DNA from: an uncultured Clostridium sp.
GTDB taxonomy: Bacteria; Bacillota; Clostridia; TANB77; CAG-508
NCBI GenBank assembly: GCA_900557045.1
Contig: USQY01000001.1
Coordinates: 28,215 to 92,214, forward strand
Length of the DNA: 64,000 bases
Reading direction: 5' to 3'
Below, one piece after another: positions 15,471 through 15,643 of the stretch (position 1 is the stretch's first letter; each line of letters starts with the position of its first letter). The notes beneath the pieces are model-generated. The model saw nothing but the letters and a program-made list of their open reading frames with translations, was not told the origin of the DNA and did not search any database. Position numbers and translations under genes: made by a program.

Positions 15471-15643
15471 CCTCCCTCGGAGAAAGAAATTTTCACTTTT
15501 GAAAAAACAAACTCCGACCTAAGCCCCAGAACATCTAACCCCAGTAATTATCGTAACAAGTCCACCAAACCCAGCACGCACTCCACCGCGTTTGAAGGAG
15601 TTTGTTTTTTCAAAAGTAAAAATTTTTTCTCTCGGTGCTCCCC
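15471..15643. repeat. family-1 hairpin element, copy A
   Basis: CTCGG-AGAAAGAAATTTTCACTTTTGAAAAAACAAACTCC ... C-rich core with AGTAATTATCGTAACAAG ... GGAGTTTGTTTTTTCAAAAGTAAAAATTTTTTCT-CTCGG. Related copies lie at 19861, 48367 and 61946. Confidence 0.85.

Follow-up and report, generated by a model that had tools for sequence, protein, structure and literature searches.

A hairpin repeat between secG and rnr

The stretch of DNA analysed here, which we call the window, comprises 64,000 nucleotides of contig USQY01000001.1 (positions 28,215 to 92,214) from an uncultured Clostridium sp. Between its genes for SecG (secG, 15769-16017, minus strand) and RNase R (rnr, 13041-15251, minus strand), recognised by their Pfam SecG and RNB/S1 RNase R matches, lies copy A of a hairpin repeat, the subject of this report. 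A sequence-only reading of the window had proposed a four-copy family in which a CTCGG, an arm, a core, the complementary arm and a second CTCGG follow one another, and repeat searching, alignment, nhmmer and a covariance model all bear this layout out. The window holds exactly four copies by repeat search and alignment (83% mean column identity), with nhmmer E-values of 1e-57 to 1e-62 and covariance model scores of 216-240 bits, and the covariance model of the repeat detected no fifth copy in the window. We conclude that the hairpin repeat is a genuine, previously uncatalogued family, most like an ordinary kind, the selfish palindromic interspersed repeats (MITE, REPIN, BOX, ERIC) of other bacteria.

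The repeat unit is non-coding, measures ~190 bp and is built of inverted arms of 36-38 nt, a C/A-rich core of ~81-85 nt, a CTCGG in direct orientation at both ends, and short C-rich tails. As a whole conserved element, copy A occupies 15466-15649, with the C-rich strand as the plus strand (nhmmer E 8.8e-60; covariance model 225 bits). Read along that strand, the left C-rich tail CTAACCTCC (15467-15475) leads into the left CTCGG (15476-15480), whose TCGG is nearly invariant in 76 family sequences, and then into the AT-rich left arm (15480-15515), which pairs across a core or loop of 81 nt (15516-15596) with the complementary right arm (15597-15631). The right end (15631-15646) consists of the second CTCGG (15631-15635), the tail TGCTCCCC (15636-15643) and the start of an A-run. 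Family-wide, conserved sequence runs ~10 nt outside each CTCGG, as CCAACCTCC on the left and as TGCTaCCCC followed by the A-run on the right. Arms, core and CTCGG are as the sequence-only reading had described them, with the conserved unit reaching farther out than the two CTCGG. The right tail is similar to the sequence with which the core begins (GAGCCCCAAAA); it serves as the junction in the tandem arrays described below.

Within the core and its margins, copy A carries the plus-strand motifs CCGACCTAAGCC (15514-15525), AGTAATTATCGTAACAA (15543-15559) and CCGCGTTTGAAGG (15586-15598). The conserved islands of the core, on the same strand, are GACCTrAG, ACATCyAAC, AGTmATTATCGTAACAA (15543-15559) and ACCGCGTTTGAAGG (ending at 15598), separated by C-rich variable stretches. 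The core had been described as almost devoid of G. This is too strong for the core as a whole (G 12.7%, C 35%) and fits its variable segments, which vary among C, A and T (G 7.8%, C 52%).

The remaining copies also have their C-rich strand on the plus strand. Copy B (19855-20040) lies between a metallophosphoesterase gene (20098-20802, minus strand) and tig (18398-19681, minus strand), and copy C (48362-48546) between ileS (48628-51393, minus strand) and queA (47072-48097, minus strand). Copy D (61944-62129) forms the centre of a second inverted repeat, whose 98-nt arms (61846-61943 and 62130-62227) belong to another repeat family.

Host lineage and dispersal of the family

The host belongs to an uncultured, spore-forming human-gut Clostridia lineage of ~25% G+C; GerA and SpoIVA genes lie near copy A, and the genes of the window are mostly on the minus strand. 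By RNase R (63-79% identity), the closest species representatives are uncultured Clostridia metagenome-assembled genomes (MAGs), Clostridium sp. CAG:508, CAG:567 and 'Ca. Scatovivens', which we take to be members of the TANB77/CAG-508 clade. The species is common in human-gut assemblies, the exact QueA protein being indexed in 177 blocks of the collection; the largest of its contigs that were read measures 434 kb.

An exact core pattern, ATTATCGTAACAAN{20,40}CGTTTGAAGG, occurs in 76 stretches of human-gut metagenome contigs from 13 assemblies. The same pattern has 0 matches among the GTDB species representatives, a result that says little on distribution because the pattern is too strict, a sister-species copy (below) differing from it in both anchors. 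In all fetched DNA (loci designated by L numbers), nhmmer recognises ~90 full-length copies with 79 distinct sequences in ~34 flank-distinct groups, drawn from 13 or more human-gut assemblies. The figure of ~34 loci is an upper estimate per genome, because a portion of the groups may represent orthologous sites in another, diverged lineage. Several loci, L082 and L084 among them, show no alignment to the window outside the element, and each of two single metagenome assemblies contributed 16 fetched contig stretches with at least 18 copies. The dispersal suspected from the four window copies extends to the whole set of flank-distinct loci, and the intergenic position noted for those four is shared by every copy in the fetched loci. 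Many short contigs terminate inside the element, as expected of a repeat.

No catalogued family accounts for the element, in keeping with the failure of the sequence-only reading to assign it to one. Rfam searched over the whole window at gathering thresholds returned only a T-box and a tRNA elsewhere, and a scan of 15200-15900 at E<=10 gave as its best match a generic hairpin with 23 bits against a threshold of 211. A scan of IMG/VR for the arm pattern gave 43 matches, all of them chance by nhmmer; BLAST of copy A in distant mode found no match in the plasmid and phage collections; and in the literature on miniature inverted-repeat transposable elements (MITEs) in gut Clostridia and on CAG-508/TANB77 such repeats were not found. 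An open reading frame (ORF) spanning the element had 4 matches in a set of 5.8 billion proteins, all of the same repeat family in the same lineage.

Paired arms and conserved islands

On both strands the hairpin folds far better than shuffled sequence (z -5.5 and -6.9). Over the 76 sequences the arms form 33 pairs that are paired in 98.6% of cases, as against 50-67% in slid registers, and double-sided changes occur in 9/33 pairs, which 0/500 shuffles matched. The compensatory C-G/T-A change that had been noticed between window copies is real, since among 77 sequences the two positions are C-G in 39, T-A in 30, G-C in 3 and unpaired or wobble in 5. It had been read as a sign of selection on the hairpin, and double changes do keep the hairpin, but this one is fixed within each locus and so distinguishes subfamilies; it is no sign of selection acting anew at every site. 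Arm complementarity could be kept by hairpin selection or equally by gene conversion between the arms, which do recombine, as a core inversion at one locus indicates. With one fixed G-T pair set aside, G-T and A-C mismatches in the arms number 12 and 20, and their being about equal suggests that neither strand is favoured as the folded strand.

Counting one sequence per locus, identity to the consensus is 94-97% in the arms, 95% in GACCTGAG, 96% in AGTCATTATCGTAACAA and 99% in ACCGCGTTTGAAGG, and 72-85% in the C-rich stretches between islands. A copy from a sister species, found in a Hadza-gut MAG (L090:17026-17215), is 69% identical and retains five blocks: CTCGGAGAAA, ACATCCAAC, AGTAATTATCGTAACA, ACCGCGTTTGGAGG and AATTTTTTCTCTCGGTGCTACCC. 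The two arms of this copy have diverged in step, at least four of the double changes being unique to it, and most of its C-runs are lost, while four core islands and both termini are kept across species. We dropped a G-quadruplex or i-motif reading of the C-runs, as they are not kept in this copy.

Paralogous copies are 85% identical and orthologous copies 92-96%, the latter about the same as clean flanks, so that the spread of the family is old and its copies now evolve roughly like neighbouring non-coding DNA. Stronger purifying selection on the element than on its flanks was considered and is not seen in clean orthologous pairs.

Orientation and neighbouring signals

The G-rich strand of the element is sense to both neighbouring genes at 18 loci and the C-rich strand at 5, with 7 mixed. 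Scored against the gene direction of the surrounding region, the loci divide 23 to 11, and the 'wrong' orientation turns up in some blocks of uniformly oriented genes. The shared orientation reported for the window copies is thus correct for the window, and becomes a bias of only 2-3:1 (18:5:7) in the family at large. Opposite element orientations occur on single contigs, for which reason an orientation tied to replication was rejected. GC skew in the window is very strong (-0.2 to -0.4 per 4 kb), and in the fetched loci (L011-L086) its sign flips with gene direction, so that in this lineage it largely reflects the coding strand; because skew tracks the coding strand, it cannot separate replication from transcription direction.

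The order of terminator, element and promoter that had been proposed for all copies holds for copies A and C, whereas a recognisable terminator stands beside the element at only 2/33 loci. Insertion after terminators was accordingly rejected as a rule, a strict terminator lying within 120 nt at only those 2/33. In the conserved part of the element there is no sigma-70-like promoter and no intrinsic terminator, and RNAalifold finds no conserved core structure on either strand. A minus-strand ORF through the core was rejected as coding, given that variable columns are consecutive rather than three-periodic and that indels of 1 nt shift the frame.

Between copy A and rnr there are six tandem 14-mers of the form TTATATCTA(T/A)AACA (15297-15392). 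The best sigma-70-like candidates for rnr, TTGATT-16-TATAAT and TTTATA-16-TATAAT on the minus strand, lie in or adjoin this array.

Rearrangements at the element

At one and the same locus, the module made of core and right arm is present in 1, 2 or 3 head-to-tail units depending on the assembly. Such tandem units, each ~120 nt long and without a closing arm, were found at 8 fetched loci from six assemblies, and their junction uses the likeness of the right tail GTGCyACCCCAAAA to the core start GAGCCCCAAAACATC. At L071 the element together with 100 nt of flank is tandemly duplicated. At L040 the core is reverse-complemented between unchanged arms and flanks; the usual orientation is found in L041, L053 and L036 (aligned) and in L057 and L075 (same locus group), and the L040 contig has a coverage of ~5x. 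Some contigs are mixed, their left and right flanks coming from different configurations. Since these contigs are short or of low coverage, the L040 inversion and the mixed flanks could be mis-joins at the repeat. Compared with window sites D and A, L046, L082, L025 and L084 have the element joined to a differing flank; they represent either another, diverged lineage that carries the family, or recombination at the repeat, or assembly chimeras.

Both copy D and a copy at another locus (L070/L062) are nested centrally in a longer inverted repeat with arms of ~100 nt. This enclosing repeat is built of a third dispersed motif, AAGGAATTGGGGACGTTTTTCTTTTCCTTCTTAGTGAACATAA, which is also found without the element, singly after genes and as a small palindrome (L033:2224-2340). 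Its sites include the two copy D arms, 61846-61943 and 62130-62227, as well as L070:4364/4764, L033, L071, L013, L022 and others.

Nature and origin of the repeat

The sequence-only reading had put forward three candidates, namely a MITE-like non-autonomous element, a structured RNA, and a protein-binding or cruciform repeat of genome architecture. The best of the three is the first, broadened to a palindromic repeat, although the analysis yielded no target-site duplication, no clean empty site and no autonomous partner. On balance, copy A is probably a member of a lineage-specific, non-coding family of palindromic interspersed repeats of the MITE/REPIN/BOX-like type. The element would be selfish DNA that once spread to many intergenic sites by mobilisation in trans, its conserved termini and core islands being the parts that the mobilising enzyme required, and that is now fixed at its sites. 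At present it would behave mainly as a substrate for recombination and replication slippage, as the rearrangements partly show. Exchange between arms may keep them complementary by concerted evolution, and may once have inverted the core; the module of core plus right arm would amplify in tandem through the CCCCAAAA(C)ATC junction, and whole copies with their flank would become duplicated. Transcription of the element, if it takes place, would be that of a passenger carried in the transcripts of neighbouring operons, where it would form a 33-bp hairpin; selection on orientation would in that case account for the mild preponderance of loci with the G-rich strand as sense.

A number of observations weigh against such an origin. 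No presence/absence polymorphism was seen within the species at the sites compared, site C being filled in 10/10 independent assemblies and site A in all three fetched contigs that span it (L001, L002, L006). The sole alignable 'empty' site, site B in L091, is not clean, as 279 nt including the element are replaced there by ~27 unrelated nt. We found no variable target-site duplication: essentially every copy has an identical flanking CTCGG, with conserved sequence beyond it as well. Neither conserved terminus is an inverted copy of the other, and non-inverted conserved sequence reaches ~10 nt beyond the arms. Neither an autonomous element nor a transposase was detected in the fetched loci, and no multi-copy ORF in 960 kb of lineage DNA. 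The loop motifs are kept across species while the arms drift, a pattern that suits a functional single-stranded structure better than a DDE-type MITE. Finally, the 70 nt on each side of the element, unalignable between loci, contain 23-27% C and 4-7% G in the orientation of the element even where both neighbouring genes point the opposite way, as compared with 8-16% C in ordinary intergenic DNA of the window; the excess of C over G reaches at least 70 nt into these flanks. These C/A-rich flanks are either long, fast-evolving tails, or tracts in which the element settles or which it generates, for example through decayed older copies.

In favour of a mobile element stand its copy number, intergenic spread and subfamilies, the degenerate end fragments that adjoin full copies, and the lack of the element from the secG-rnr and tig sites in 29-30 related species. 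In the screen for transposases, the only ORFs found in multiple genomic contexts were housekeeping genes; the Pfam-annotated neighbourhoods confirm that no transposase is nearby, and no RAYT (Y1 HUH) gene was seen in the annotated neighbourhoods of the fetched loci. A composite empty target CCTCC-CTCGG-TGCT was not found in the element-bearing lineage or in Clostridia relatives, where every CTCGGTGCT-type site follows a right arm or a degenerate right-end remnant. MAG L091 (5551-6188 compared with window 19500-20400) is a mosaic: to one side of site B its identity to the window is 95.6% along 5.9 kb, to the other side 84.7%, with the break exactly at the position of copy B.

The main doubt comes from the combination of arms kept as structure only with a loop and termini conserved in sequence, which leaves room for a functional RNA or a DNA or single-stranded DNA (ssDNA) site. 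A functional single-stranded structure, be it RNA or ssDNA, in which the stem is held as structure and GACCTGAG, ACATCYAAC, AGTAATTATCGTAACA, ACCGCGTTTGRAGG and the CTCGG termini are held as sequence, is in our estimate doubtful. Taken specifically as a structured RNA, either a small RNA (sRNA) family or a cis-acting element of 3' or 5' untranslated regions whose stem presents single-stranded loop motifs, it appears rather unlikely. One possibility is base pairing of the C-rich strand with G-rich ribosome-binding sites, in the manner of the C-rich loops of Firmicute sRNAs of the RsaE/RoxS type; alternatively, the G-rich strand could act in operon transcripts. A stem held by compensatory changes (with the unique double changes of the sister-species copy, at least four, among them), loop islands that outlast the drifting arms, the strongly negative fold z-scores and the 18 loci against 5 at which the G-rich strand is sense to both neighbours are what one would expect of such an RNA. 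Yet it has no Rfam match, RNAalifold detects no conserved core structure on either strand, and no promoter or terminator lies within the element or at its conserved ends. Both orientations moreover occur in uniformly oriented gene regions, the ratio of G-U to A-C mismatches (12 to 20) shows no strand preference, orthologous copies are no more conserved than flanks of good quality, and the tandem units do without a closing arm; arm covariation, for its part, can also arise by gene conversion between inverted repeats.

Many of the same features could suit a site acting at the DNA level, such as a protein-binding or cruciform element or an ssDNA hairpin whose termini and islands are read by a host recombinase, an HUH enzyme or a nucleoid protein; the binding of RAYT, gyrase and IHF to REP/BIME elements would be a parallel. 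Islands and termini that are conserved in sequence across species beside arms conserved as structure only, the strictly intergenic location, the invariant direct CTCGG at both ends and the recombination events centred on the element agree with this proposal, which we nevertheless regard as unlikely, because no candidate protein was identified, because the islands contain no palindrome or dyad by eye, and because an essential architectural role fits poorly with the lack of the element from the corresponding sites of related species. That the repeats are a family of invertons, with the 37-bp arms as recombination sites and core orientation as the switched state, is very improbable. The inverted core of L040, set between the same arms and flanks as in five other assemblies, is what such a family would produce; it is however the only inverted copy among ~90 and comes from a contig of ~5x coverage, the core contains no promoter, no invertase or recombinase gene is adjacent, and the segment of ~85 bp is shorter than the invertons known to us. 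Chance similarity or assembly artefact is practically out of the question and, individual rearrangements aside, is refuted for the element itself: although some rearranged configurations stem from short metagenome contigs of low coverage, E-values are <=1e-57, and >20 independent assemblies, produced by different assemblers, have the same copies in the same places.

Comparison with known repeats

Returning to the palindromic interspersed repeat, its closest counterpart in modular architecture is BOX, and in general REPIN, MITE and ERIC elements come closest. BOX of Streptococcus pneumoniae is likewise a non-coding, modular, intergenic repeat of 100-200 bp in a Firmicute, with complementary terminal modules that form a stem-loop, an internal module of variable tandem number, no transposase of its own and dozens to hundreds of copies; the likeness is one of architecture, and no homology is claimed. 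In the present family, by contrast, the amplified module is the core plus right arm (~120 nt), the core is strand-asymmetric and the ends are invariant, direct CTCGG.

With the RAYT-mobilised REPIN or REP-BIME elements, known mainly from Proteobacteria, the family shares a long imperfect hairpin of two inverted units, a strictly extragenic position that is often near gene 3' ends, high copy number, lineage specificity and paired changes that conserve structure. Its arms differ in being AT-rich, non-palindromic 36-38-mers without a GTAG head, and its loop of 81-85 nt is far longer than a REPIN spacer and contains conserved motifs. The MITEs Correia/NEMIS of Neisseria, RUP of pneumococcus, bcr1 of the Bacillus cereus group and ERIC/IRU of enterobacteria resemble it as non-coding, multi-copy, intergenic sequences of 100-200 bp with inverted repeats and subfamilies; they are also co-transcribed with neighbours to give hairpins, a feature that our repeat may have in common with them. 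At ~190 bp the family lies below the size limit of ~600 bp for MITEs. Correia and RUP duplicate a TA target and bcr1 a TTTAT target, and RUP has a cognate insertion sequence (IS). In the present family there is no variable duplication, no partner IS was found, and the conserved ends exceed the inverted repeat and are not inverted copies. PATEs derived from IS200/IS605 would be a parallel in being mobilisable as an ssDNA hairpin, without target duplication, beside a fixed short flanking sequence and with asymmetric ends. They have a separate sub-terminal hairpin for each end, whereas here a single hairpin spans the element; its orientation is not tied to one replication strand, and no TnpA or TnpB gene was seen.

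The family adds a Firmicute case of a modular palindromic repeat with a strand-asymmetric core and conserved motifs. It also has practical consequences, as it breaks short-read assemblies of a common uncultured gut Clostridia lineage, with many contigs ending inside the repeat, and in MAGs of the clade it probably marks places where the sequence is rearranged, varies in tandem number or may be mis-joined. A covariance model of the family would aid annotation and strain typing. Should the loop motifs be recognised by a protein or active as RNA, the repeat would be an approachable case of repeat mobilisation or host use in uncultured bacteria. Were it in fact a functional single strand, uncultured gut Clostridia would have a new class of non-coding RNA present in many copies, or else the repeat would be the substrate for a hairpin-specific recombinase or HUH enzyme that is as yet unrecognised, and an enzyme of that kind could also explain the core inversion and the tandem units.

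Other repeats and features

The genome, small and of 25% G+C, contains at least three further families of small repeats alongside this one. Besides the third motif that encloses copy D, a second family of hairpin plus core occurs at 12793-12955 and 30240-30402, the two copies being 77% identical over 163 nt. It has AT-rich arms of 23-28 nt (GGCCAAATAAAATATATTAAAAT...) and a G+C-richer core of 64-74 nt, an architecture like that of the repeat studied here with unrelated sequence. A fourth motif, TATTGGGGACGTTTATTATTGGACATTTTTGTCC..TTGGGACAGATAT, forms a GGACA/TGTCC hairpin, is often present 2-3 times per locus and has the word TTGGGGACGTTT in common with the third. It was seen at L025:465, 559 and 1992; L084:873, 967 and 2400; L055:347 and 444; L061:8194; L082:12685; and L166:151.

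Between tgt and queA, ~seven tandem AT-rich units of 36 nt (46773-47026) are overlapped by a spurious-looking plus-strand ORF (46769-47035). In L002:1-2520, from an assembly with identical SecG, the region corresponding to window 18088-19681 has DUF5711, CvpA and a 74-aa ORF upstream of clpP, and not trigger factor; this difference is not at an element copy. The window contains a single tRNA-Glu with anticodon CTC (32273-32347, minus strand) and, upstream of ileS, a T-box leader (RF00230; 51502-51735, minus strand; 97.8 bits) in the ordinary arrangement.

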